Under the pieces are notes generated by a model. That model made no database searches. It had not been told where the DNA came from and saw only the letters and a program-made list of their open reading frames with translations. Source: Escherichia coli (GTDB taxonomy: Bacteria > Pseudomonadota > Gammaproteobacteria > Enterobacterales > Enterobacteriaceae). From it: a DNA stretch of 64,000 nt. Positions 2,278 to 23,529 of this stretch are shown here, piece by piece (position 1 is the stretch's first letter; every line of letters starts with the position of its first letter). The translations under genes were made by a program, and so were the position numbers. Where the stretch lies: the NCBI RefSeq assembly GCF_024502345.1, contig NZ_JALDNN010000001.1; one strand, written 5' to 3'.

Positions 2278-2537
2278 GTAAAAATGCAGCGTGATTTTAT
2301 ATGCCTTTGAATGGATTATGCGAAGCGCCTCTAAGGCAGATGAGGAGCAATAGCATGCTGAAGTAGAAGGCTAAATTGTATTGAATCGCTAGCATGTAAT
2401 TTAAGGCAGCTATTTGATTCGAGTCATAAAAGAGCATCTATTTCGGCTAATAAAACCATTGCGAGTGACCTTTTGTCGAAGCATAATTCATCTCGAGCGA
2501 AGTCTTGCTAGTCTTTCATCGGAATGATGACAGGCGC

Positions 2538-2568
2538 AAAAAAACCACCCTGGCAGGTGGTTTTTTTG
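2538..2568. terminator. Bidirectional rho-independent terminator
   Basis: A-run, inverted repeat aaccacc/ggtggtt with loop ctggcag, then T-run (aaaaaaaccaccctggcaggtggttttttt). Confidence 0.6.
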
Positions 2569-2579
2569 TTTGAAGCATA

Positions 2580-2693
2580 CTAAAGAATAATACTTACATG
2601 GATATTACTGACGTTTACTGACAAACCACTTGGACTACCATATGGATAGCCAAAGAGGGCCAGAACGAGAATGCAGTAATAGCACTTCTTCAT
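2580..2693 (-). CDS. Hypothetical small hydrophobic peptide, 37 aa (MKKCYYCILVLALFGYPYGSPSGLSVNVSNIHVSIIL)
   Basis: ATG preceded by SD-like GGAGGAGAT; ORF ends just before the bidirectional terminator at 2538-2568; start overlaps stop of upstream minus-strand ORF 2690-2935 (ATGA); below the 60-aa cutoff of the ORF track. Confidence 0.25.
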   Translation of the reverse strand: MKKCYYCILVLALFGYPYGSPSGLSVNVSNIHVSIIL

Positions 2694-3263
2694 ATCTCCT
2701 CCTGTAAGCAGAGGGCAATTTCCGCCGATATATGCGCTTCTAAGGCGGAGTTACTATTTAGCGAAGTCTTGCCCTGAAATAATGCTCTGTTTAAACGCAA
2801 AGTGATCTGGCATATCACCGAACAGAGAGCCTGAACAACACAACATATAGTATGTCGTTGTTTCTGGTTGCATTTTATGTTGTGTAATACTGGTTTTGCA
2901 TCAAGGATGTTTGAGCTTTTTTTGATATAGCTCAAAGTAAAAAGCAGGGACTACGGATGATAAGGTATTGAAAGCAATGTAAATTTTTTAAAGTTATTGG
3001 TGGCTAAAAAATGCACGGTTTCAATATGGCGGACTTAAATAAGCAATTAAAAAAGTCATAAATATCACTAAAATCATGGTGTTACGTTTTTTGTGGGAGC
3101 TGCGGTGACGCTTAAGTTGATTTGTCATTAAATAAGCCGTGCATGCAACAAGTGAATGTTTTTGCATGCGTCGGGGATGCCCGTTCCAGCTGCTTGCGGT
3201 CAGAGCTGGTGCGGATCCATAGTATCTATGCAACTGCATTAAAACCGACTCATGAAGCGGGCG

Positions 3264-3282
3264 GGCGAGGCGGGGAAAGCAC
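3264..3282. other. cos: P2 cos cohesive-end sequence (19 nt GGCGAGGCGGGGAAAGCAC)
   Basis: Exact string present between gene A and Q, where cos lies in P2; the 19-nt sequence is recalled from P2/186 literature. Confidence 0.6.
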
Positions 3283-3421
3283 TGCGCGCTGGCGGTGGTG
3301 CTGATTTTATTTTTTCAGCGTCTGAGCGCGTCGTGAAGGCGTTTACTTGGCCTGCTGGGCGTTGGTGTGTCTGCGGGGTGTTTTGTGCGGTGGTGAGCGT
3401 GTGAGGGCGTGATGGCGGGGT

Positions 3422-3449
3422 GTAAAAAAGCCGCCCGCAGGCGGCGATG
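3422..3449 (-). terminator. Rho-independent terminator downstream of Q (minus strand)
   Basis: Minus strand reads gccgcctgcgggcggc hairpin followed by a T-run immediately after the Q stop. Confidence 0.55.
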
Positions 3450-3450
3450 T

Positions 3451-4485
3451 TCAGCCGTTGTCAGTGTCCAGTGAGTAGTTTTTAAAGCGGATGACCTCCT
3501 GACCGAGCCAGCCGTTTATCTCGCGGATCCTGTCCTGTAACGGGATAAGCTCATTGCGGACAAAGACCTTTGCCACTTTCTCTATATCACCCAGCGACCC
3601 GACGTTCTCCGGCTTGCCACCCATCAACTGAAAGGGGATGCGGTGCGCGTCCAGCAGGTCTGCGGCGCTGGCTTTTTTGATATTAAAAAAATCATCCTTC
3701 GTTGCCACTTCACTGAGCGGGATAATTTTAATGCCGTCGGCTTTCCCTTGTGGGGCATAGAGAAACAGGTTTTTAAAGTTGTTGCGGCCTTTCGACTTCA
3801 CCATGTTTTCGCGGAGCATTTCGATATCGTTGCGATCCTGCACGGCATCGGTGACGTACATGATGTATCCGGCATGTGCGCCGTTTTCGTAATACTTGCG
3901 GCGGAACAGCGTGGCCGACTCATTCAGCCAGGCAGAGTTAAGGGCGCTGAGATATTCCGGCAGGCCGTACAGCTCCTGATTAATATCCGGCTCCAGCAGG
4001 TGAAACACGGAGCCGGGCGCGAAAGGTGTCGGCTCATGGAAGGACGGCACCCACCAGTAAACATCCTCTTCCACGCCACGGCGGGTATATTTTGCCGGTG
4101 AGGTTTCCAGTCTGATGACCTTACCGGTGGTGCTGTAACGCTTTTCCAGAAACGCATTACCGAACACCAGAAAATCCAGCACAAAGCGGCTGAAATCCTG
4201 CTGGGAAAGCCACGGATGCGGGATAAATGTCGAGGCCAGAATATTGCGTTTGACGTAAATCGGCGAGCTGTGATGCACGGCAGCACGCAGGCTTTTCGCC
4301 AGACCGGTAAAGCTGACCGGCGGCTCATACCATCTGCCGTTACTGATGCACTCGACGTAATCCAGAATGTCACGGCGGTCGAGTACCGGCACCGGCTCAC
4401 CAAAGGTGAATGCCTCCATTTTCGGGGCGCTGGCGGTCATTTTTTTTGCCGCAGGTTGCGGTGTTTTCCCTTTTTTCTTACTCAT
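3451..4485 (-). CDS. Q: P2 gpQ portal protein (344 aa)
   Basis: 344 aa, same length as P2 Q; position next to cos and terminase P; stop overlaps P region. Confidence 0.9.
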   Translation of the reverse strand: MSKKKGKTPQPAAKKMTASAPKMEAFTFGEPVPVLDRRDILDYVECISNGRWYEPPVSFTGLAKSLRAAVHHSSPIYVKRNILASTFIPHPWLSQQDFSRFVLDFLVFGNAFLEKRYSTTGKVIRLETSPAKYTRRGVEEDVYWWVPSFHEPTPFAPGSVFHLLEPDINQELYGLPEYLSALNSAWLNESATLFRRKYYENGAHAGYIMYVTDAVQDRNDIEMLRENMVKSKGRNNFKNLFLYAPQGKADGIKIIPLSEVATKDDFFNIKKASAADLLDAHRIPFQLMGGKPENVGSLGDIEKVAKVFVRNELIPLQDRIREINGWLGQEVIRFKNYSLDTDNG

Positions 4486-6257
4486 CAGTAAAACTCCAGA
4501 ATGGTGGATGTCAGCGGGGTGCTGATACCGGCGGTGAGTGGCTCATTTAACAGGGCGTGCATGGTCGCCCAGGCGAGGTCGGCGTGGCTGGCTTCCTCGC
4601 TGCGGCTGGCCTCATAGGTGGCGCTGCGTCCGCTGCTGGTCATGGTCTTGCGGATAGCCATAAACGAGCTGGTGATGTCGGTGGCGCTGACGTCATATTC
4701 CAGACAGCCACGGCGGATAACGTCTTTTGCCTTGAGCACCATTGCGGTTTTCATTTCCGGCGTGTAGCGGATATCGCGCGCGGCGGGATAGAACGAGCGC
4801 ACGAGCTGGAACACGCCGACACCGAGGCCGGTGGCATCAATCCCGATGTATTCAACGTTATATTTTTCGGTGAGTTTGCGGATGGATTCCGCCTGGGTGG
4901 CAAAGTCCATGCCTTTCCACTGGTGACGCTCAAGTATTCTGAATTTGCCACCGGCCACCACCGGCGGTGCCAGTACCACGCATCCGGCGCTGTCGCCACG
5001 GTGTGACGGGTCGTAACCAATCCATACCGGGCGGGAGCCGAACGGATTGGCGGCAAAGGGTGCATAGTCTTCCCATTCTTCCAGCGTGTCGACCATGCAG
5101 CGTTGCAGCTCCTCGAACGGGAACACCGACGCCTTGTCGTCAACAAATTCACACATGAACAGGTTTTTAAAATCGTCGGCGCTGTTTTCGCGTTTGAGCT
5201 GCTCAATGTCGAACAGCGTGCAGCCACCTTTCAGGGCGTCCTCAATGGTGACAATCTGTCGCCACTGGCCGTCCGCACAGAGAAGCCCACCGGCAAGGGC
5301 GTTATGACTGACGTCGATTTCCACGCGTTCGGCGGCGCTGGCGCGTCCCCGGTTAAACAGTGCACCCGACCAGAACGGGTAGGCGTCGTGCGCCAGCGTG
5401 GACGGGGTGGAGAAATAGGTCGAACGCAGGTGACTCTGTGAGGCCATACCTGATGCCACCTTACGCAGTACCTGAAAATTCGGGATCCAGAAAATCTCGT
5501 CGACGTACAGGTCGCCGTTATGGCTCTGTGCGGTGTTGGAGTTGGTGCCGAGAAAAATCAGTTTTGCGCCGTTATTGCCCAGGACAATCGGGTCACCGGT
5601 CAGGTCAACGTCAACCAGCCGGGCAAAGGCGATGATGTATTCACGGAACACATACGCCTGCGTTTTACTGGCCGACAGAAAAATCTGGTTATGGCCGGTT
5701 TTCAGGGCGCGCAGCAGCGCCTCGCGGGAAAAATAAAACGTTGCGCCAATCTGACGGGATTTCAGGATATCGCGGATGCGGTGCTCAAGCCCGGCGCGAT
5801 ACCAGTGCAGCTGATAGTCGAAAGACTGCTCAAAGAAAATCTGCTCCAGCTTTTCGATGGCCTCGTCACTGAAAAAATTCTTTTTCGGTTTGCGACGCCC
5901 GCCTTTGTTGCGGTTAGCGATGTTCGGATTAAGGTCTGCCTCGTTGCCGGTCTGGCTGTAACGGTTGACCCGTGCCAGTCGTTCAATCTGGCGTCCCAGC
6001 AGGTCAATTTCCTTGAAGTCCCCGCCGGTTTTCTGCGGTTTGATGATGAGCTGGGTCAGCCGCGCTTCCAGACTCATTTCGACACGGCTGATGGGGGCAA
6101 CGCTGTCCCAGCCGTCGCGCTGTTTCCAGCTCTGCACCGTCGGGCGTTTCATCTGCAACATGGCGGCAATCTGCGGCACGGAAAACCCCTGCCAGTACAG
6201 CAGCGCCGCCTGACGACGCGGGTCGTGTAAAAGAGTGGTGTCTGTGGTGATGGTCAT
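4485..6257 (-). CDS. P: P2 gpP terminase large (ATPase) subunit (590 aa from internal ATG)
   Basis: ORF-track frame 4485-6287; start placed at MTITTDTTLL (ATG 6257) to match P2 gpP length; terminase-like translation. Confidence 0.9.
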   Translation of the reverse strand: MTITTDTTLLHDPRRQAALLYWQGFSVPQIAAMLQMKRPTVQSWKQRDGWDSVAPISRVEMSLEARLTQLIIKPQKTGGDFKEIDLLGRQIERLARVNRYSQTGNEADLNPNIANRNKGGRRKPKKNFFSDEAIEKLEQIFFEQSFDYQLHWYRAGLEHRIRDILKSRQIGATFYFSREALLRALKTGHNQIFLSASKTQAYVFREYIIAFARLVDVDLTGDPIVLGNNGAKLIFLGTNSNTAQSHNGDLYVDEIFWIPNFQVLRKVASGMASQSHLRSTYFSTPSTLAHDAYPFWSGALFNRGRASAAERVEIDVSHNALAGGLLCADGQWRQIVTIEDALKGGCTLFDIEQLKRENSADDFKNLFMCEFVDDKASVFPFEELQRCMVDTLEEWEDYAPFAANPFGSRPVWIGYDPSHRGDSAGCVVLAPPVVAGGKFRILERHQWKGMDFATQAESIRKLTEKYNVEYIGIDATGLGVGVFQLVRSFYPAARDIRYTPEMKTAMVLKAKDVIRRGCLEYDVSATDITSSFMAIRKTMTSSGRSATYEASRSEEASHADLAWATMHALLNEPLTAGISTPLTSTILEFY

Positions 6258-12186: not shown

Positions 12187-12637
12187 GTTTAAGCGTTTTG
12201 AAGACCGGCTGACCGGACTTATTGAATCGCTGTCACCGTCAGGGCGTCGGCGACTGGCGGTAGATATTGCGAAGAAACTGCGCCAGCGCCAGCAGCAGCG
12301 AATTAAATTACAAAAAGCCCCGGATGGTACGCCGTATGTACCGAGAAAAAACCAGCCAGTGCGAAATAAGAAAGGCCGGATAAAGCGGGAAATGTTTGCG
12401 AAATTACGCACAAACCGATTTATGAAAGCAACAGGTAGCGAGAGTGCGGCTGTGGTGGAGTTTGCCAGCGGAGTACAACGAATTGCGAGAGTACATCAAT
12501 TAGGGCTTAGGGATAAGCCGGGGCGTAATAGTGCTGTGGTGGAATATCCTGTTCGTGAGTTATTAGGTTTTGACAAGGAATCTATACAATTGATAGAAAA
12601 GGAGTTATTAGTGATTCTATCGAAAGATGTTATATGA
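12179..12637 (+). CDS. S: P2 gpS tail completion protein (152 aa), 3' part AT-rich/mosaic
   Basis: MNEFKRFEDRLTGLIESLSPSGRRRL N-terminus; composition turns AT-rich in 3' third. Confidence 0.85.
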   Translation: MNEFKRFEDRLTGLIESLSPSGRRRLAVDIAKKLRQRQQQRIKLQKAPDGTPYVPRKNQPVRNKKGRIKREMFAKLRTNRFMKATGSESAAVVEFASGVQRIARVHQLGLRDKPGRNSAVVEYPVRELLGFDKESIQLIEKELLVILSKDVI

Positions 12638-13389
12638 GATGGGTGTTTGTGGATAAAAAATTTTCCATTTTGAGAAAAAGAGTAAAGCATTCTCAAAAGA
12701 AAGTTATGGATTGTATTATTGCTGACCATAATGCTGATGTATGTGTGTTATGCGGGAGTTCTGACGATATTACTCGTGAGCACATTATTCCTCAGTGGGC
12801 CTTTGAGTCAAATGCTGAAAAACTTTTAATTAATAAAAAGAATAATCAGTCAACTCATTACATCAAAGCCACTGTACCAGCATGCAGAGTGTGCAATTCT
12901 GATTTGCTGGGAGCGTTTGAGTATAACCTGAAGAAATTTCTTACGGAAAAGAGGGGCGATGAGTTAACAGATTATGAATATGATTGCATCATATGGTGGT
13001 TGCAATACATGGGCTTTAAGTTGCAATTAATGGATTTACGGACCCGCTTTCTCAGGTATAAAGGGGGGGATTATATCCCTTTCCTTGCAAACTTCCCGGT
13101 TGCAATGTTTTGGGGGAATGTCGATACGACACCGGAGGATGTCTTCAGGATTATAAGAAAATCGCGACGCAATCTGATGTCGAAATGGAAGGATAAAAAA
13201 CATAATTCTTTGATGGTTTTTGAAACATCAAACAAGAGTTTTCATTTCTTTCATAAGGTTGATGAATTTATTTTTATTGAAATGCCTCAGGTTAAGAAGG
13301 CGTTTTTCTTCTTTTTTAATAAAGAATTTGACAGCCATGATTTAGCTCATGAGGAGTGTATGAAGATTATAGAGAAGTGCTACAACTAA
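12634..13389 (+). CDS. Accessory protein with HNH-type nuclease motif (251 aa), inserted between S and V
   Basis: CVLCGSSDDITREHIIPQWAF ... ATVPACRVCNSDL resembles a CxxC...H...N...CxxC HNH core; strongly AT-rich; ATG overlaps S stop (ATGA). Confidence 0.6.
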   Translation: MRWVFVDKKFSILRKRVKHSQKKVMDCIIADHNADVCVLCGSSDDITREHIIPQWAFESNAEKLLINKKNNQSTHYIKATVPACRVCNSDLLGAFEYNLKKFLTEKRGDELTDYEYDCIIWWLQYMGFKLQLMDLRTRFLRYKGGDYIPFLANFPVAMFWGNVDTTPEDVFRIIRKSRRNLMSKWKDKKHNSLMVFETSNKSFHFFHKVDEFIFIEMPQVKKAFFFFFNKEFDSHDLAHEECMKIIEKCYN

Positions 13390-14450: not shown

Positions 14451-15359
14451 ATGCCGATTATCGACCTGAACCAGCTACCCGCACCGGATGTGGTCGAGGA
14501 GCTGGACTTTGAAACCATTCTTGCCGAACGCAAGGCGACACTGATTTCCCTTTACCCGGAAGACCAGCAGGAGGCGGTCGCCCGTACCCTGACGCTGGAA
14601 TCCGAGCCTCTCGTCAAACTGCTGGAGGAAAATGCGTATCGCGAGCTTATCTGGCGTCAGCGTGTGAATGAGGCTGCACGGGCGGTGATGCTGGCCTGTG
14701 CAGCCGGTAATGACCTTGATGTGATTGGTGCCAATTACAACACCACGCGCCTGACTATCACCCCGGCAGATGATTCGACCCTCCCGCCGACACCGGCAGT
14801 GATGGAATCTGACACGGATTATCGTCTGCGTATTCAGCAGGCGTTTGAAGGTTTAAGCGTTGCCGGGTCGGTGGGTGCCTATCAGTATCATGGTCGCAGT
14901 GCCGACGGGCGCGTCGCAGATATCTCTGTCACCAGTCCGTCTCCGGCCTGCGTCACCATCTCTGTGCTGTCACGTGAAAATAACGGTGTCGCATCCGAAG
15001 ACCTGCTGGCTGTGGTACGTAACGCCCTTAATGGCGAGGACGTCAGGCCGGTGGCCGACCGCGTGACCGTGCAGTCTGCCGCCATTGTTGAATATCAGAT
15101 AAACGCCACGCTTTACCTTTACCCTGGTCCCGAAAGCGAACCCATTCGCGCTGCCGCCGTGAAAAAACTGGAAGCGTATATCACGGCACAGCACCGGCTG
15201 GGGCGCGACATCCGTCTGTCTGCCATTTATGCCGCTTTGCATGTGGAAGGCGTGCAGCGTGTCGAACTGGCTGCACCACTGGCTGACATCGTGCTCAACA
15301 GTACGCAGGCGTCTTTCTGTACCGAATACCGCGTCGTGACCGGAGGCTCGGATGAGTGA
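14451..15359 (+). CDS. J: P2 gpJ baseplate protein (302 aa)
   Basis: 302 aa, position and size. Confidence 0.9.
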   Translation: MPIIDLNQLPAPDVVEELDFETILAERKATLISLYPEDQQEAVARTLTLESEPLVKLLEENAYRELIWRQRVNEAARAVMLACAAGNDLDVIGANYNTTRLTITPADDSTLPPTPAVMESDTDYRLRIQQAFEGLSVAGSVGAYQYHGRSADGRVADISVTSPSPACVTISVLSRENNGVASEDLLAVVRNALNGEDVRPVADRVTVQSAAIVEYQINATLYLYPGPESEPIRAAAVKKLEAYITAQHRLGRDIRLSAIYAALHVEGVQRVELAAPLADIVLNSTQASFCTEYRVVTGGSDE

Positions 15360-15882
15360 TTCGCGACTGCTGCCGACCGGCTCATCACCGCTTGAAGTTG
15401 CTGCCGCAAAAGCCTGTGCGGAAATTGAAAAAACGCCGGTCAGTATTCGTGAGCTGTGGAACCCGGACACCTGCCCGGCAAATCTGCTGCCGTGGCTGGC
15501 GTGGGCGTTTTCGGTCGACAGGTGGGATGAAAAGTGGCCGGAAGCGACAAAACGCGCCGTTATCCGCGATGCGTATTTCATTCATTGTCATAAAGGCACT
15601 ATAGGTGCAATCCGGCGTGTGGTGGAGCCGCTCGGCTATCTCATCAACGTGACGGAGTGGTGGGAAACCAGTGACCCGCCAGGCACCTTCCGGCTTGATA
15701 TTGGTGTACTGGAAAGCGGCATCACAGAGGCAATGTATCAGGAAATGGAACGGCTTATTGCTGATGCCAAACCTGCAAGCCGTCATCTTATTGGCCTGAA
15801 CATTACCCGGGACATTCCCGGCTACCTGTTCGCCGGTGGTGTGGCTTACGACGGCGATGTAATTACGGTTTACCCCGGATAA
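15352..15882 (+). CDS. I: P2 gpI baseplate protein (176 aa)
   Basis: 176 aa, overlaps J stop. Confidence 0.9.
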   Translation: MSDSRLLPTGSSPLEVAAAKACAEIEKTPVSIRELWNPDTCPANLLPWLAWAFSVDRWDEKWPEATKRAVIRDAYFIHCHKGTIGAIRRVVEPLGYLINVTEWWETSDPPGTFRLDIGVLESGITEAMYQEMERLIADAKPASRHLIGLNITRDIPGYLFAGGVAYDGDVITVYPG

Positions 15883-15892
15883 GTGAGGAATA

Positions 15893-18211
15893 ATGAGCAC
15901 AAAATTCAGAACCGTTATCACCACTGCCGGTGCAGCAAAGCTGGCAGCGGCAACCGCACCGGGAGGGCGGAAGGTCAACATTACCACGATGGCCGTCGGG
16001 GATGGCGGTGGTAAATTGCCTGTCCCGGATGCCGGACAGACCGGGCTTATCCACGAAGTCTGGCGACATGCGCTGAACAAAATCAGCCAGGACAAACGAA
16101 ACAGTAATTATATTATCGCAGAGCTGGTTATTCCGCCGGAGGTGGGCGGTTTCTGGATGCGTGAGCTTGGCCTGTACGATGATGCGGGAACGTTAATTGC
16201 CGTGGCGAACATGGCCGAAAGTTATAAGCCAGCTCTTGCCGAAGGCTCAGGGCGTTCGCAGACCTGCCGCATGGTCATCATCGTCAGCAGTGTGGCCTCA
16301 GTGGAGCTGACCATTGACACTACAACGGTGATGGCAACGCAGGATTACGTTGATGACAAAATTGCAGAGCACGAACAGTCACGACGTCACCCGGACGCCT
16401 CGCTGACCGCAAAAGGTTTTACTCAGTTAAGCAGTGCGACCAACAGCACGTCTGAAACACTGGCCGCAACGCCGAAAGCGGTAAAGGCCGCCTATGACCT
16501 TGCTAACGGGAAATATACTGCGCAGGATGCCACCACGGCGCGAAAAGGCCTTGTTCAGCTCAGTAGTGTGACCAACAGCACGTCTGAAACGCTCGCCGCA
16601 ACGCCGAAAGCGGTAAAGGCAGCATATGACCTTGCTAACGGGAAATACACTGCACAGGACGCCACCACCGCGCGAAAAGGCCTTGTTCAGCTCAGTAGCG
16701 CCACCAACAGCGATTCTGAAACGCTTGCGGCAACACCAAAGGCGGTTAAGACAGCGTATGACCTTGCTAACGGGAAATACACTGCACAGGATGCCACCAC
16801 TGCGCGAAAAGGTCTTGTCCAGCTCAGTAGCGCCACCAACAGTGATTCTGAAACCCTCGCGGCAACGCCAAAAGCAGTGAAGTCTGCCTATGACAATGCT
16901 GAAAAACGTCTTCAGAAAGATCAGAACGGTGCGGATATTCCGGGAAAGGATACCTTTACGAAAAATATCGGTGCCTGTCGTGCTTATAGCGGCGCTTTGA
17001 GCACTGAAGCCGGAAACTGGACAACCGCTCAGTTTATTGAATGGCTGGATTCCCGTGGTGCATTTAATCATCCGTACTGGATGTGCAAAGGCTCCTGGTC
17101 ATATGCAAATAACAAAATCATTACGGATACCGGATGTGGTGATATCCACCTGGCTGGTTGTGTAGTCGAGGTCATGGGAACTAAATCTGCAATCACTATC
17201 CGAGTGACCACGCCGACAACATCAAGCGGTGGCGGTACAACCAGCGCACAATTCACTTACATTAATCATGGGGACGGCTACTCCCCCGGCTGGCGTCGTG
17301 ACTGGAATCGTCAGGGCGACTCAATGACCGGAACGATTAATCAGGATGGCGGAAGCCAGAATGCCTATATGTCTACGGCCTTATGTTCAGGCACCAGAGG
17401 CGGCAAAAAATATCTCAGAAAGTTTCGTGGTGGAGAAGGAGACACTATCTGGCATGAAACAGTGCAGGGCGGGGTAATTCGCTGGGCGACAGGAAACTAT
17501 GACGCTCAGGAAGAATTATCACTCAGCTCCGCTTATGGTCTCCGTTCTAGAGGTGAAATTACATCACTCAGTGCTAATGGTCTGCGCATTGCTTATGGCA
17601 ATTATGGATTCTTTATCAGGAATGATGGTGGCAGCACATATTTAATGCTGACGGCCTCTGGTGATAAATTTGGGACATGGAACGGTTTAAGGCCGCTGAC
17701 TATCAATAACGCTAATGGCGGAGTGTCAATGGGGCATGGCCTGAGTGTTACTGGTGATATTGCCTCAAGTACCAAAGTACGTGCCGGTAGCGGGAAAAAG
17801 TTCACGGTCAGCAGCAGCAATACATCCACGAAGGAAGCCGCATTCAATTTGTGGGGAAACTCAAGTCGTCCTGTGGTGGCTGAATTAGGTGATGATGCAG
17901 GCTGGCATTTTTACAGTCAGAGAAATACAGATAACAGCATCACTTTTGCTGTTAACGGGCAGGTATCACCATCTAACTATAGTAATTTTGATTCACGCTA
18001 TGTCCGGGATATCCGACTTGGTGGTGCTGCCACATACAAACCTGCTAACAATGGCATGACATGGACACATCAGGCACCGTCCGGGTGTGTATATTCCGGC
18101 ATTATTGTTCAGGATACCGGCTCAAACTCTGCCGATAACATTGGTGGCGTATATTACAGACCGGTGCAGAAATACATTAATGGGACTTGGTATAACGTGG
18201 CGCAGGTATAA
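15893..18211 (+). CDS. H: P2 gpH tail fiber protein (772 aa) with internal tandem repeats
   Basis: Conserved N-terminus MSTKFRTVITTAGAAKLAAATAPGG; four 44-aa repeats; variable C-terminal half. Confidence 0.9.
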   Translation: MSTKFRTVITTAGAAKLAAATAPGGRKVNITTMAVGDGGGKLPVPDAGQTGLIHEVWRHALNKISQDKRNSNYIIAELVIPPEVGGFWMRELGLYDDAGTLIAVANMAESYKPALAEGSGRSQTCRMVIIVSSVASVELTIDTTTVMATQDYVDDKIAEHEQSRRHPDASLTAKGFTQLSSATNSTSETLAATPKAVKAAYDLANGKYTAQDATTARKGLVQLSSVTNSTSETLAATPKAVKAAYDLANGKYTAQDATTARKGLVQLSSATNSDSETLAATPKAVKTAYDLANGKYTAQDATTARKGLVQLSSATNSDSETLAATPKAVKSAYDNAEKRLQKDQNGADIPGKDTFTKNIGACRAYSGALSTEAGNWTTAQFIEWLDSRGAFNHPYWMCKGSWSYANNKIITDTGCGDIHLAGCVVEVMGTKSAITIRVTTPTTSSGGGTTSAQFTYINHGDGYSPGWRRDWNRQGDSMTGTINQDGGSQNAYMSTALCSGTRGGKKYLRKFRGGEGDTIWHETVQGGVIRWATGNYDAQEELSLSSAYGLRSRGEITSLSANGLRIAYGNYGFFIRNDGGSTYLMLTASGDKFGTWNGLRPLTINNANGGVSMGHGLSVTGDIASSTKVRAGSGKKFTVSSSNTSTKEAAFNLWGNSSRPVVAELGDDAGWHFYSQRNTDNSITFAVNGQVSPSNYSNFDSRYVRDIRLGGAATYKPANNGMTWTHQAPSGCVYSGIIVQDTGSNSADNIGGVYYRPVQKYINGTWYNVAQV
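16412..16939 (+). repeat. Four tandem 132-bp repeats inside tail fiber gene H
   Basis: Repeated unit KG(L/F)xQLSSxTNSxSETLAATPKAVKxAYDLANGKYTAQDATTAR visible in protein and DNA; fourth copy diverges. Confidence 0.8.
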
Positions 18212-18214
18212 TTT

Positions 18215-18742
18215 ATGCAGCATTTGATAAATATAATGGCAGGTAATCCAAAAACGGTTGAACAATATCAATTGACAAAGGACTTTGATGTTGTCTGGTT
18301 TTTTTCAGAAGATGGTAAGAACTGGTACGAAGAACAAAAGTATTTTGCTGATGACACGATAAAAATAGCGTACGACAAAGATAATATTATCCGCTATGTG
18401 GAAAAGGATGTGACAGCTATCAGACCGGATGGATTAAGTGTTGTTGAAGTGCCGGATATTACTGCTAACCGACGGGCGGACATTTCAGGGAACTGGATGT
18501 TTAAGGACGGTACAGTGATTAAACGAATTTATACGGCAGAGGAATTGCAGCAGCAGGCAGAAAATCGGAAAGCCAGACTTCTTGCAGATGCTGAATCCGT
18601 GATTTTGCCGCTGGAGCGCGCTGTCAGGCTGAATATGGCAACAGATGAGGAGCGCAGTCGACTGGAGGCATGGGAACGCTACAGTGTTCTGGTCAGTCGT
18701 GTGGATCCTGCAAATCCTGAATGGCCGGAAATGCCGCAATAA
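18215..18742 (+). CDS. G: P2 gpG tail fiber assembly chaperone (175 aa)
   Basis: 175 aa, immediately after H. Confidence 0.85.
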
Positions 18743-18864
18743 GTTGTATGAGCTCTGGTGTGAGCTTACATATCTATGGCACAGAGTAAAGCCTAATCTG
18801 AGAGTCCGCTCTGTGCCAGGAGGGGACGTTGCTCACCTATAAATATCCCAGCAAAACGGAACAC

Positions 18865-19673
18865 TCATCTTTGCAATCTTTTTATGTTTATATAAAGTTC
18901 CTCAATCAGCTCTTCCGAATTTTGACTGTAATGCAATGCCCGATGGCAATTCGGGCATAATGCAACACAATTGCTTATGGTGTCAGCACCAGATAAAGAA
19001 AGAGGTATCACATGATACACTTCGAGATATGGGATATCGCCATTTATTAAGAACGGTGTATTTTCACTACATCTTTCACAAACGCCCTTACTCCCTTGCA
19101 ATACACAAGATTTAACAGCAAGATCCCGAATATAAACCTTCTGAACTCTTTCTAATGTTCCAGTTTTTTATGTCCCTCGGACTCGTTCAAAGGAATTTAT
19201 ATTAGCTTACTGACCATTTTACTTAGAACACTCTCATCATTAGTGGCTCGAAAAGCACTGATGTATCTCCGTAGATGATAGGTTTCCAAAATTCAGCACT
19301 ATTAACACTAGGAACATTTATCATTACTCGCTCAGTTCTGTTCCCTGATGGTGCATCTTTTTTAGCAGTACTGTTCAAATGAGTCTGATACATACACATT
19401 TTTTGGGAAATATCGGAAGGGTAGTTTCCCACTAAAGAAAATTACATCATCAGGATGTATTTTTCTTTCCGCTATAGATGGTATATGTCTTCCGGTTGAT
19501 GATGAGGCCAAATACACAACGCCTTTGTTTACCCCGGAATCAATAAGTCGTCCAATGATATAATCGATGGCAATATTATAATCTTTGTTTCTATGCGCCA
19601 GTCATCAGGGCTCAAATATCAGGCCATATACCCCATCTTCTTCACCTACTAGGCACTCAACGTTCAGTTCCAT
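18865..19673 (-). pseudogene. mcrA-like HNH endonuclease gene (type IV 5-methylcytosine restriction family), disrupted by several frame changes
   Basis: Pieces in three frames: MELNVECLVGEEDGVYGLIFEP; AHRNKDYNIAIDYIIGRLIDSGVNKGVVYLASSSTGRHIPSIAERKIHPDDV; ...SGNRTERVMINVP...; intact C-terminal HNH core CERC...PYLEVYHVIPLSLSGADTISNCVALCPNCHRALH. These resemble McrA as recalled from memory. Confidence 0.6.
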
Positions 19674-19877
19674 ACCATTGTTATCAAGAGATTGCTTTGT
19701 ATTGCGCGGGAAACGTCTAGTTTGAATTAAGGAATTGTGAGGCGGAAGATGGGATTTAGGAATTTGGTTAGAGTTAGCAATGTTAATAAATGGGCCTAAT
19801 TTCACTTTAAATCAAATTCCTAAATATTAAAGAAAGCAAGCTGGCCTACATAAACAGCCAGCCTTGGATAATTCAAT

Positions 19878-21692
19878 TCACTTCTTACATAGAATGCTGG
19901 GTTTTACTCCGTACTCAACACATGCACTCAAAAATGTATTTATAAGCCAGATTAGCTGAACAGTATAAGGTTTGGCTGACTGATTTCTCTTGATGATTTC
20001 CACCTCATCGATTAACATTTTTTTTCTTAAAAATGGAGCAGCTAATATTAACTCCCTACTAGTTTTCGGACTCTCATTAATTTTGTCAAGAGCTAACTCA
20101 ATGTCATTCCTGGAAGTGTCAATTGGTCTAATTCTACTAATCTGCGTTTGTAAATATTTTGAAGACCATTCATTATCATATTTATCAAGGTAAAGTTCTT
20201 TTGGTGAATGTAATCTGCCAATATTTTTTAAAGCTTGACTTATAACTTCATGAAATTTACTGGCGCCATAGCTCTCTTTTTTAATATATTTAGAATGAAT
20301 AAACTTTATGGATGGATTTCCTGTCGTGATATCCAGCACAATATGATCGGCCCACTCATCATTCATATCATCACAAATTACAATAGCATCTTTATTTGAA
20401 TAGATATTCTCCACTCGTCTAAATAGCGATCTCACTGGAAATCTTTTAATATTTTCTGGATAAGATTGTTTGTCATCTTTCTCTTTTTCCGATCTGATTG
20501 TTGAAAAATCAAAGCTATCATCAAAAACGGACAGGAAAATATTCAAATTATTTAACATCGTTTTATCTTCAAAACACGAACGACCATGATAGCAATATTG
20601 GGGGGAATCGAAGGTTATAGTGAATGGCTTAAACTTGTTAATATATTTACTAAGCGACATTAACTGAGAACCATTTTCACTAATCATTATACCATCGAGA
20701 TATTTGGATACTATAGTCACAACCTTAGTATTGAATCTCAGACGACATTTGAATTTGAATCTTAAATTGGTTAGCGTTTCACCATCTAAGAAATATGATG
20801 ATTTAAATCCATTGAAAAATTTGTCAAGTTCAACAGAACTTAACGTCACCGTTCCATGAGGCACATTTTTTGTTAGTGTAAAAGTATGGGACGTGCCACG
20901 CACCATATCATCCAACTCGCTAAGATCTATAAAAATAGCTTTTGGCTTGACTTTTTTTGCTAATAATTCACTCAAAGTAATAGGGGAAGAGAAACCTGCC
21001 ATTAGCTTACTTGACAAAGAGGCTGTGTTAGATAATTCATTTACTGTAGCTATTGCCCATGAGCAGAAATTAAAAAAATCCACTTTTTTATCTTTGTAGC
21101 CTATTCGTGAAGTATTTGGTGTTAAAGTAAATATGTCATTTCCTGTCTTGACTCTAAATGTCCCTGGAATTGAACGTCCAGTCGTGTTAGGAGAAAGAAT
21201 GCCACTTAGATTTTTTGCTTCCACTGTTCTATTTCTTATCACTGAATCTGACAGTGACATATTCCTCATGCTAATTTTTTCATACTCAGGATTCAGCCTT
21301 CCATTAAAATTTGAAAATTTATCAAACTCAAAGTATTCTATGAACCTTTCCAACTCGCTTTCAATTGCATCAACATTTTTCTTCGAAATTATTAAAAAAT
21401 CCTGAACCTCCAAGATCATTAGATACGCATACTTGCTTTCTGAAATGCTAGTGCCTTGTAGAAATGAAGGCTCTTCTAGAACTTTAAAAGACACCAAAGA
21501 GTAAGTTAAATTCCCATTATCTACAACAACTTCAGATTTAATTTTATTTATAAGAAAGACACCATCTTTTATCGAGGATATGCTTCTAAATAGATTTTTT
21601 ATTTTATTTCTAGATAAAGGTTTTTTTATCTTAAAAAATTGTGCATTTTTTGATAAAATTAAATCATTGATACTGAAAATATATTTAGTCAC
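19878..21692 (-). CDS. Orphan AT-rich protein of unknown function (604 aa), prophage hotspot cargo
   Basis: Long uninterrupted ORF in very AT-rich DNA; GTG start 8 nt after AAGGA; no Walker A, no YxDD box, no HNH seen by eye; C-terminal segment AIVICDDMNDEWADHIVLD...IKFIHSKY could be a nuclease-like acidic/basic cluster. Confidence 0.6.
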   Translation of the reverse strand: MTKYIFSINDLILSKNAQFFKIKKPLSRNKIKNLFRSISSIKDGVFLINKIKSEVVVDNGNLTYSLVSFKVLEEPSFLQGTSISESKYAYLMILEVQDFLIISKKNVDAIESELERFIEYFEFDKFSNFNGRLNPEYEKISMRNMSLSDSVIRNRTVEAKNLSGILSPNTTGRSIPGTFRVKTGNDIFTLTPNTSRIGYKDKKVDFFNFCSWAIATVNELSNTASLSSKLMAGFSSPITLSELLAKKVKPKAIFIDLSELDDMVRGTSHTFTLTKNVPHGTVTLSSVELDKFFNGFKSSYFLDGETLTNLRFKFKCRLRFNTKVVTIVSKYLDGIMISENGSQLMSLSKYINKFKPFTITFDSPQYCYHGRSCFEDKTMLNNLNIFLSVFDDSFDFSTIRSEKEKDDKQSYPENIKRFPVRSLFRRVENIYSNKDAIVICDDMNDEWADHIVLDITTGNPSIKFIHSKYIKKESYGASKFHEVISQALKNIGRLHSPKELYLDKYDNEWSSKYLQTQISRIRPIDTSRNDIELALDKINESPKTSRELILAAPFLRKKMLIDEVEIIKRNQSAKPYTVQLIWLINTFLSACVEYGVKPSILCKK

Positions 21693-22214
21693 TTTGATGT
21701 CCTTATAATTAACATTTGATTATTCAAGAACAACTAGACAGCACTTCAGAGAAAATCAAATGGGAAATGGAATAGTTTAGATTCAGAAGATTACATTAAC
21801 ACGTAATATATTAAAAGTAATTATCTAAAACAATATTAATTATTGACTCGCGCAGTATTTAACTGCAAAAATTTGATTTAGGTCGTTTTTTTCTTACAAA
21901 GGCCAAGCCGCCAGGCCCGAAATGCCGCCTCTGCCGGTTAGCGCAATTGGGCTGACGCCCCGGGGCACTGGGGAGCCGAAACTTTAAGAAATCCGGAGAA
22001 TTGACCGTTATTTGAAATAAAAATGCCATTGTAACTTTCGTGTTTAGGCATAGAAAAATTTCCTTTTAACAAAACATAGTAATACTAGTAATGCGCCTTG
22101 TGCGGTGATCAAAATTGCGAACTTCCGCTCCTCGCTCAAAGCAGACTGTCAGATTTGATAGCGTTTTGGCTATGTAAATTGTCAGTCGGAAAATGAGTGA
22201 GTACAAACTAGGAC

Positions 22215-22240
22215 AGGCGGGCGAATTGCCCGCCTTTTCT
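22215..22240 (+). terminator. Rho-independent terminator upstream of FI
   Basis: ggcgggcg-aatt-gcccgcc hairpin followed by ttttct. Confidence 0.55.
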
Positions 22241-22338
22241 GTATCTGTTGTTTCATCCACTGACCAGACAGGTCAAATAGCGTCTCATGCTCTGCCCAAC
22301 GGAAAATAGTTGCACCCATTAACCACGGAGTTAAACGG

Positions 22339-23529
22339 ATGAGTGACTATCATCACGGCGTGCAGGTGCTGGAGATTAACGACGGCACCCGCGTCATTTC
22401 CACCGTATCCACTGCCATTGTCGGCATGGTCTGTACGGCCAGCGATGCAGATGCGGAAACCTTCCCCCTCAATAAACCGGTGTTGATTACCAATGTGCAG
22501 AGCGCAATTGCAAAGGCCGGTAAAAAAGGCACGCTGGCGGCATCGTTGCAGGCCATCGCTGACCAGTCAAAACCGGTCACCGTTGTCGTGCGCGTGGAAG
22601 ACGGCACCGGTGATGACGAGGAAACGAAACTCGCGCAGACCGTTTCCAATATCATCGGCACCACCGACGAAAACGGTCAGTACACCGGACTGAAAGCCCT
22701 GCTGGCGGCGGAGTCGGTAACCGGTGTTAAACCGCGTATTCTCGGCGTGCCGGGACTGGACACCAAAGAGGTGGCTGTTGCACTGGCATCAGTCTGTCAG
22801 AAGCTGCGCGCTTTCGGGTATATCAGCGCATGGGGCTGTAAAACTATTTCCGAGGTGAAAGCCTACCGCCAGAATTTCAGCCAGCGTGAGTTGATGGTCA
22901 TCTGGCCGGATTACCTCGCATGGGATACGGTCACCAGTACCACCGCCACCGCGTATGCCACCGCCCGTGCGCTGGGTCTGCGCGCTAAAATCGACCAGGA
23001 GCAGGGCTGGCATAAAACACTGTCCAACGTTGGGGTGAACGGTGTTACCGGCATCAGCGCATCTGTATTCTGGGATTTGCAGGAGTCCGGCACCGATGCT
23101 GACCTGCTGAATGAGTCAGGCGTCACAACGCTGATTCGCCGTGACGGTTTCCGCTTCTGGGGTAACCGTACCTGCTCTGATGACCCGCTGTTCCTCTTTG
23201 AAAACTACACCCGCACCGCGCAGGTACTGGCCGACACGATGGCTGAGGCGCACATGTGGGCGGTGGACAAGCCCATCACCGCAACGCTGATTCGCGACAT
23301 CGTTGACGGCATCAATGCCAAATTCCGTGAGCTGAAAACAAACGGTTATATCGTGGATGCGACCTGCTGGTTCAGCGAAGAATCCAACGATGCGGAAACC
23401 CTCAAGGCCGGAAAACTGTATATCGACTATGACTATACACCGGTGCCTCCTCTCGAAAACCTGACCCTGCGCCAGCGTATTACCGATAAATACCTGGCGA
23501 ATCTGGTCACCCCGGTTAACAGCAATTAA
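22339..23529 (+). CDS. FI: P2 gpFI tail sheath protein (396 aa)
   Basis: 396 aa, size and position. Confidence 0.9.
   Translation: MSDYHHGVQVLEINDGTRVISTVSTAIVGMVCTASDADAETFPLNKPVLITNVQSAIAKAGKKGTLAASLQAIADQSKPVTVVVRVEDGTGDDEETKLAQTVSNIIGTTDENGQYTGLKALLAAESVTGVKPRILGVPGLDTKEVAVALASVCQKLRAFGYISAWGCKTISEVKAYRQNFSQRELMVIWPDYLAWDTVTSTTATAYATARALGLRAKIDQEQGWHKTLSNVGVNGVTGISASVFWDLQESGTDADLLNESGVTTLIRRDGFRFWGNRTCSDDPLFLFENYTRTAQVLADTMAEAHMWAVDKPITATLIRDIVDGINAKFRELKTNGYIVDATCWFSEESNDAETLKAGKLYIDYDYTPVPPLENLTLRQRITDKYLANLVTPVNSN

Follow-up and report, generated by a model that had tools for sequence, protein, structure and literature searches.

A PDC-S71 gene encoding a candidate phage-defence nuclease in a repeat-bounded cassette at the fun(Z) slot of a P2-like prophage of Escherichia coli

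Phage P2 carries the gene fun(Z) on the minus strand between its genes G and FI, and the P2 reference annotates it as blocking T5. This G/FI slot has been described as a second defence hotspot of P2 (Vassallo et al., 2022, PMC9519451). Rousset et al. (2022) dealt only with the old/tin locus, and a 2026 preprint on P2/P4 defence hotspots states that the recombination processes by which the cargo is swapped "still need to be elucidated". Here we describe the cargo of the G/FI slot in a P2-like prophage of Escherichia coli (contig NZ_JALDNN010000001.1), within a window of 64,000 nucleotides, by which we mean the whole stretch of DNA that was analysed. The slot (positions 18743-22338, 3596 bp) holds a transferable cassette in which only one gene is intact. 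This gene encodes a 604-aa protein of the PDC-S71 family that we propose to be a DNA-binding nuclease.

The family is already catalogued as a candidate. In fact, PDC stands for phage defence candidate, and the 145 PDCs were nominated by homologues embedded in BREX, DISARM or type I restriction-modification (RM) loci (bioRxiv 10.1101/2024.01.29.577857). The PADLOC model for PDC-S71 (PDLC05077) matches residues 7-604 of the protein over profile positions 3-589 of 589 (E 1.1e-218, 725.8 bits), and no other PADLOC model matched it up to an E value of 10. Length, architecture and the organisation as a single-gene unit are the same, so that nothing sets the protein apart at the family level: on sequence grounds, it is a new member of PDC-S71. 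To the description of the family it adds a setting in a prophage slot and an assignment of domains by predicted fold. The preliminary description of this DNA had called the gene an orphan and the island a combination without a named system, a view that the full-length match does not support. RefSeq annotates the same open reading frame (ORF) in E. coli O19:H7 730V1 as a "hypothetical protein" (WP_000170427.1). With 571 cluster representatives at E values up to 0.001, the family is conserved over its full length (about 590 aa) in Gammaproteobacteria, Bacteroidota and Campylobacterota. The members that are named are all "hypothetical" as well. Pfam, NCBIfam, PHROG and PDB sequences gave no family match to the protein, and the search of PDB sequences was empty both with the single sequence and with a profile. 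Pfam returned only a chance match to DisA and weak matches to DUF4722, for the protein and for two family alignments. No phage structural family was matched in PHROGs, so that the match to a structural or morphogenetic protein by which the preliminary description would have been refuted did not arise.

Between the tail-fibre assembly gene and the tail sheath gene (Table 1), the GC content falls to 0.24-0.39 over about 19100-22000, compared with 0.55-0.59 in the tail genes on either side. These belong to a P2-like prophage, with a replication endonuclease gene through position 2277 and, in the aligned RefSeq record, ogrK at about 28.7 kb. The foreign DNA proper spans 18804-22146. Homology to copies of the cassette in three other settings begins at 18804-18809 and stops at 22144-22152, and P2-like prophages with other cargo have sequence in common with this one from about 22116 onward. 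No recombinase gene lies inside the cassette. The whole locus is found again, at 99.9% identity, in E. coli O19:H7 730V1. The island is best explained as one transferable cargo cassette that occupies the fun(Z) slot of this P2-like prophage. The preliminary description had rightly recognised an AT-rich stretch of about 3.6 kb at the P2 Z/fun position and a site known for interchangeable anti-phage cargo. Its statement that the stretch does not look like phage backbone applies to 18804-22146; conserved P2 backbone makes up the first 60 bp at the left edge and about 190 bp at the right edge.

The flanks of the slot are common to 1028 of 5426 complete E. coli genomes, and among the matches listed that span the G to FI flank, the cargo consists of RES, SIR2, SMEK, DUF3606, "lysogenic conversion" or hypothetical genes. 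Thus, by its G/FI gene order, by the variation of the cargo among relatives and by the P2 reference itself, our cassette is cargo of the P2 fun(Z) hotspot. It resembles fun(Z) of P2 closely in its setting: both are AT-rich accessory cargo in the G/FI slot, both are antisense to the tail operons and both are bracketed by the same pair of 27-nt repeats. The genes themselves differ. On the present data, the 528-aa T5-blocking protein of fun(Z) shows no homology to the 604-aa gene: a tblastn search of 50,697 phage records, from a collection that includes phage P2, gave no match.

Is the intact gene maintained? A cassette that is 92% identical in Providencia allows a comparison of both its genes. 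Over the 604-aa gene, nucleotide identity is 95.4% without any indel and the ratio of non-synonymous to synonymous substitution rates (dN/dS) is 0.20; over the adjacent pseudogene region, identity is 88.5% with 16 gap positions. The absence of indels and the low dN/dS next to a decayed neighbour mean that the 604-aa gene has been maintained and the pseudogene has not. Judged from this codon comparison, the gene is under purifying selection. The whole island could also be viewed as decaying junk, with both genes heading for loss: one of the two is already a pseudogene, and few genomes have the cassette (8 of the 5426 complete ones of E. coli, one of them at the G/FI slot). We find this highly improbable, given an ORF that is intact in all copies beside a pseudogene with stops and 16 gap positions, and given a family that keeps its full length across three bacterial groups.

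The second gene of the island is a remnant of a McrA-type (type IV, HNH) restriction endonuclease. Its surviving piece is a 78-codon ORF (18865-19101, minus strand) with an HNH motif, and this piece matches only the last 78 positions of the 277-position PADLOC type IV HNH model. A three-frame translation recovers more, namely fragments colinear with positions 4-29, 35-93, 86-151 and 181-277 of 277 of the PADLOC model mREase_IV (PDLC03656). In tblastn, residues 4-277 of E. coli K-12 McrA (277 aa) align to the region (E 4e-66, 64% identity in the HNH part). Homology thus covers the whole protein, and the reading frame is broken by in-frame stops and at least two frame changes, running to about 19697 over three frames. 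RefSeq annotates only a 51-aa fragment here. The Providencia cassette has the same decayed mcrA remnant, and the Providencia rettgeri copy is broken at different places. The gene is a dead passenger. As in the e14 prophage of K-12, where mcrA (encoding EcoKMcrA) lies near tfaE/stfE, the pseudogene lies near a tail-fibre assembly gene; unlike the K-12 gene, it is inactivated by in-frame stops and frameshifts, with other lesions in Providencia. Of the two minus-strand genes reported in the preliminary description, the 604-aa ORF therefore stands as an intact gene, while the "mcrA-like" gene stands as a homologue and falls as a functional gene. A working partnership between the two falls as well. 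We rejected a two-gene system because the mcrA-type gene is disrupted in E. coli as well as in Providencia and because no such gene lies downstream of the 604-aa homologue in the seven other contexts examined (Photobacterium, Pseudomonas, Yersinia, Draconibacterium, Dechloromonas, Kushneria and a 64%-identical metagenomic set). There is a lesson for annotation in this: the "mcrA-like gene" is dead here and has no place in a count of defence systems.

What might the intact protein do? Its predicted structure falls into two regions (Table 1). The N-terminal region has a predicted fold similar to that of RdgC, RexA and CENP-L and matches the whole RdgC/CENP-L/Chl4/Iml3 fold group. The C-terminal domain has the predicted alpha/beta core of PD-(D/E)xK restriction-endonuclease-like proteins. 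McrC, AspBHI, SduA, Can2, Cap4 and Avs4 were also named in the predicted-structure comparisons. In a family alignment of 151 sequences, which reaches down to about 25% identity, E402, K403, F424, D442, E446, D449, K468, Q486, K489 and N490 are invariant. The model places D449 at the start of core strand 2, K468 at the end of strand 3, and D442 and E446 in the preceding loop. In the model, D449 and K468 are therefore found where the "PD" aspartate and the catalytic lysine usually sit.

On balance we lean towards the view that the 604-aa protein is a stand-alone DNA-binding nuclease for phage defence. The N-terminal RdgC/RexA-type module would probably form a dimer and bind or encircle duplex DNA whatever its sequence. 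In this way it would hold the C-terminal PD-(D/E)xK domain on the DNA, where this domain would cut incoming phage DNA. Self DNA might be spared if loading takes place on free DNA ends or on replication/recombination intermediates, which is the option that we favour. The data show the location and limits of the cassette, the family membership, purifying selection, the predicted folds, the invariant acidic and lysine residues and the decay of mcrA; DNA binding, dimerisation, nuclease activity and defence are what we infer for this protein. We favour this view because the gene sits in a documented defence slot with varied cargo, where fun(Z) of P2 blocks T5, and because it matches over its full length a family nominated from BREX, DISARM and type I RM loci. 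It is further suggested by the 100% invariance of D442, E446, D449, K468 and Q486 across the 151 sequences, by a dN/dS of 0.20 without indels next to a decayed pseudogene and by the N-terminal fold group, since the RdgC-type fold is a DNA-binding one and is found in the lambda exclusion protein RexA too (PMC11077077). Finally, the neighbours of homologues are defence-like and variable, with neither a constant partner nor a methyltransferase.

A nuclease of this kind could also act as an abortive-infection toxin, kept inactive until a phage protein or an infection-induced DNA structure releases it; it would then degrade host and phage DNA together and kill the cell before phage are released. 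Lambda RexA, part of an exclusion system of abortive character, is of the same fold class as the N-terminal region (PMC11077077), and a conserved loop at about residues 146-172, modelled with low confidence, is compatible with a regulated switch. Nothing in the data separates such a toxin from direct restriction, and we regard it as unlikely. The loop is encoded at about 21177-21257 on the minus strand and has a model confidence (pLDDT) below 50 in the full-length model and of about 80-87 in a model of the N-terminal region alone. M145, S148, I152, R155 and E158 are invariant in the 34 sequences of closer members, and in all 151 sequences L162 is kept at 93% and E158 at 88%. From the models, this loop may be a mobile element that contacts DNA or acts as a switch.

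The neighbours of homologues are often defence-like or linked to integrases. In Providencia, PvuRts1I-like/SRA, HNH_2 and Mrr_cat type IV genes occur together with an integrase on the smpB side. In Draconibacterium there is a Gabija-like OLD-TOPRIM and UvrD pair with an integrase; in Yersinia, an integrase, a helicase and an HNH_2 gene; in Pseudomonas, RES-Xre, HATPase_c_3 and integrases. No constant partner and no adjacent methyltransferase was present in the contexts examined, and outside the copies of the cassette the neighbours vary from one homologue to the next, as would be seen for a single-gene unit. These surroundings bring up another alternative, that the protein is a modification-dependent (type IV-like) enzyme whose N-terminal region reads modified phage bases while the nuclease cuts nearby, which would leave unmodified host DNA safe with no need of a methyltransferase. 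The lack of a methyltransferase beside any homologue examined would fit, as would the former McrA gene here and the PvuRts1I-like/SRA, HNH_2 and Mrr_cat cluster in Providencia. However, prophage and host DNA are those of a Dam/Dcm-methylated E. coli, whose marks such a specificity would have to avoid, and no modified-base reader domain was recognised in the protein. We consider this alternative distinctly unlikely.

Shedu (SduA) is a single-protein DNA-sensing PD-(D/E)xK nuclease, a logic that the 604-aa protein may share; unlike Shedu, it is matched by no PADLOC Shedu model and its predicted N-terminal fold is RdgC-like. FokI and N.BspD6I (type IIS and nicking enzymes) have no sequence similarity to it, as there was no PDB sequence match, and unlike them the gene has no partner methyltransferase and its recognition region is not FokI-like. 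Nor is it a Hachiman system, with no adjacent HamB helicase and no HamA/DUF1837 match. If the protein protects against phage, PDC-S71 would no longer be just a computational candidate and would become a real single-gene system. Its build would be unusual, an RdgC/RexA-type DNA clamp driving a restriction-like nuclease, and the poorly understood RexA/RdgC fold would be tied to a direct enzymatic read-out.

Several observations weigh against a DNA-binding defence nuclease. The residue two positions before K468 is His in 87% of members and not Asp or Glu; with His at the acidic position of (D/E)xK, the site is a variant one and its geometry is atypical. Sequence profiles (Pfam, NCBIfam and PDB sequences, with the single sequence and with alignments) gave no nuclease family. 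The N-terminal alignment showed no relation to E. coli RdgC or lambda RexA in hhalign (probability 0.14 for both), none of 32 family members matched RdgC in Pfam, and Foldseek found nothing significant in the PDB. Every inference on function draws on structural models and on similarities of fold at 5-10% identity. A standard sigma-70 scan of the minus strand upstream of the gene found no consensus site, and a relaxed scan gave weak candidates (8-9 of 12 matches, 112-146 nt before the start), so that no convincing promoter was found. Furthermore, the family had no tblastn match in the 50,697 phage genomes and is present in a single IMG/VR contig, which is this same prophage, so that one cannot speak of typical phage cargo. 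Housekeeping genes are the only neighbours of some homologues. The authors of the PDC catalogue state that its systems are untested (bioRxiv 10.1101/2024.01.29.577857), and we found no paper on PDC-S71 or WP_000170427, which is not proof that none exists.

Most of the PDC-S71 length also occurs in another arrangement. On plasmid p4 of Rhizobium sp. NLR16a (NZ_CP072869; positions 2300-4513 of fetched locus L017), directly after an IS5 transposase gene, lies the gene of a 737-aa "RNA helicase" in which the end of a Helicase_C domain is followed by PDC-S71 profile positions 136-588. Here, a helicase portion thus takes the place of the first N-terminal domain. Against plasmids, tblastn with the 604-aa protein gave four distant matches only.

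Table 1. Features of the fun(Z) slot and its flanks (positions in the window)
Feature	Coordinates	Strand	Basis
Tail-fibre assembly gene, P2 G homologue, left backbone flank	18215..18742	+	ORF; RefSeq annotation of identical locus
Left boundary repeat (L-type) GTCCGCTCTGTGCCAGGAGGGGACGTT, dyad-symmetric hairpin; its first base is the cassette's first base	18804..18830	+	Cassette homology; one mismatch to the 27-nt consensus
McrA-type (type IV, HNH) restriction endonuclease pseudogene	18865..19697	-	PADLOC fragments, tblastn, RefSeq
Intact 604-aa PDC-S71 family gene, GTG start	19878..21692	-	PADLOC PDLC05077; nucleotide identity to Providencia copy
Predicted PD-(D/E)xK nuclease domain, codons ~420-604	19881..20435	-	Predicted fold
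Predicted RdgC/RexA/CENP-L-type DNA-binding region, codons 1-398	20499..21692	-	Predicted fold
Shine-Dalgarno-like AAGGA, 7 nt before the GTG start	21700..21704	-	Read from sequence; kept in Providencia copy
AT-rich cassette DNA upstream of the 604-aa gene	21693..22119	-	88.8% identical to Providencia copy
Right boundary repeat (R-type) GTCTGCTTTGAGCGAGGAGCGGAAGTT; its outer end is the cassette's last base	22120..22146	-	Cassette homology limits; motif matches
GC-rich hairpin then T-run, P2 backbone upstream of FI	22215..22235	+	Terminator-like site; similar hairpin at the corresponding P2 place
Tail sheath gene, P2 FI homologue, right backbone flank	22339..23529	+	ORF; RefSeq annotation of identical locus

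How did the cassette come to lie in this slot? Of its eight copies in the complete E. coli genomes, only one is in the G/FI slot, and other copies lie in non-P2 islands (two of the seven were read). Because the cassette is near-identical (99.7-99.8%) in at least three different E. coli genomic settings, it must have moved recently. The ends of the moving unit are well defined. A 27-nt dyad-symmetric repeat (consensus GTCCGCTCTGTGCCAGGAGCGGACGTT) lies at the exact ends of the cassette in inverted orientation; as an inverted repeat, the two ends are identical at 29 of 36 positions (score 37, compared with 12.8 +/- 2.1 for shuffles).

The same repeat marks the borders of other cargo. In P2, it brackets fun(Z) at 15335-15361 (+) and 17429-17455 (-, 8 mismatches), which correspond to 536-562 and 2630-2656 of fetched locus L070, and in other prophages it brackets other cargo at the G/FI slot. 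In non-P2 islands it stands between one cassette and the next, and it is also found on both sides of the Providencia copy and in a Yersinia island. Copies lie, among other places, at 354-380 and 3320-3346 of L010, 1562-1588 and 2716-2742 of L011, 5549 and 8853 of L002, and 3249, 5001, 8317, 8362 and 10548 of L009. In all, 631 kb of fetched loci contain 97 copies and shuffled sequence contains none. Neighbouring copies mostly read "+ then -" and enclose 0.9-4.0 kb (29 cases). The 10 pairs that read "- then +" start 39-45 nt apart and form a conserved head-to-head doublet of about 72 nt between adjacent cassettes, which folds into one long hairpin (z -5.4). Conservation of the motif is 94-100% in its arms and only 44-60% at the three central positions. 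A 34-nt consensus occurs at 3322 places in 2586 of the 5426 E. coli genomes, 58 of them on plasmids, with 1-5 copies per genome, at the borders of cargo.

The repeat had no match in Rfam, and the island as a whole had none at E values up to 1. It does not fit an integron attC site: the sequences GTTGCTC and GTTCGCA that follow the motif do not fit GTTRRRY, the repeats are inverted around each cassette, and no integron integrase is annotated in the loci read. REP/REPIN-type repeats are short palindromic units, often in inverted doublets that form a long hairpin, have many copies per genome and are linked to a RAYT transposase; the present repeat has hairpin units and conserved 72-nt head-to-head doublets, and only 1-5 copies per E. 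coli genome. We found no description of it in a limited literature search, which is not proof of absence. Thus the site and the gene family are already catalogued, and it is the boundary repeats that we did not find described.

By analogy, the repeat could be a recombination joint, since its layout of arms plus spacer is like the core site of a tyrosine recombinase; it could also be a REP-like transcript insulator. Its presence at cassette ends in P2, other prophages, chromosomal islands and plasmids makes it a concrete candidate for the joints at which cargo is swapped, and this may matter more than the gene. A far-reaching proposal, which we put forward as tentative and rather unlikely, is an undescribed cassette-exchange system of Enterobacterales. 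In it the repeats, of L- and R-type around each cassette and fused into doublets between neighbouring ones, would serve as recombination joints, and defence genes would move by them among the P2 fun(Z) slot, further prophages, integrase-borne islands and plasmids, with a passenger here that would be the first single-protein immune effector built as an RdgC/RexA-fold clamp-nuclease.

The sharp, repeat-defined ends, the recent movement of the cassette between E. coli settings and its 92%-identical copy in Providencia also raise the idea that the gene does not serve defence at all. The protein would then be a nuclease for the mobility or maintenance of the cassette (of homing or addiction type), or it would modulate recombination in the manner of RdgC, which is a recombination modulator (PMC11077077); a cassette that lacks a recombinase of its own would be in keeping with this. 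However, the same repeats flank many unrelated cargo genes without any PDC-S71 homologue, and the mobility of the cassettes is therefore independent of the 604-aa protein. Most family members were seen without nearby repeats (there are none in loci L003, L004, L012-L014 and L020). Moreover, homing endonucleases of the PD-(D/E)xK type tend to be small, and a homing nuclease is housed inside its own target gene. A non-defence role is thus improbable in our view, and we keep to a nuclease that would act on incoming phage DNA.

A 200-aa "site-specific integrase" (WP_001305361.1) is encoded within a few hundred bases of repeats in two E. coli islands of the Ag43/dynamin type (L009 9927-10529 and L026 6566-7168). 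It is possible that this protein is the enzyme that acts on the repeats. In many genomes of K-12 type, a copy of the repeat (26 of 30 nt) lies inside the small annotated gene ydfV of the Qin prophage, which casts doubt on the ydfV ORF as a genuine gene, since it may be a repeat that was annotated as a gene.

Within the island, a GC-rich segment at about 21900-21990 was considered as the scar of a tail-fibre assembly gene. We dropped this idea, as the match covers only 15 nt and the segment is confined to the eight copies of the cassette.

Beyond the fun(Z) slot, the prophage differs from that of E. coli 730V1 at two other variable sites. The classical old/tin hotspot of P2 corresponds here to 2278-3450 (about 1.17 kb), with the replication endonuclease gene on one side and the portal gene (3451-4485, minus strand) on the other. 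No ORF in it reaches 100 aa, its GC content is 0.39 at 2401-3000, and it looks empty or decayed; the related prophage of 730V1 carries a DUF3850 gene and hypothetical genes there. Between a gpS-like gene and the baseplate gene V lies an ORF of 251 aa (12634-13389, plus strand; GC 0.38) that has no PADLOC match, and in its place the 730V1 prophage has a different, minus-strand gene for a hypothetical protein of 357 aa. The site between the gpS-like gene and baseplate gene V is thus a third variable cargo site in this phage lineage.

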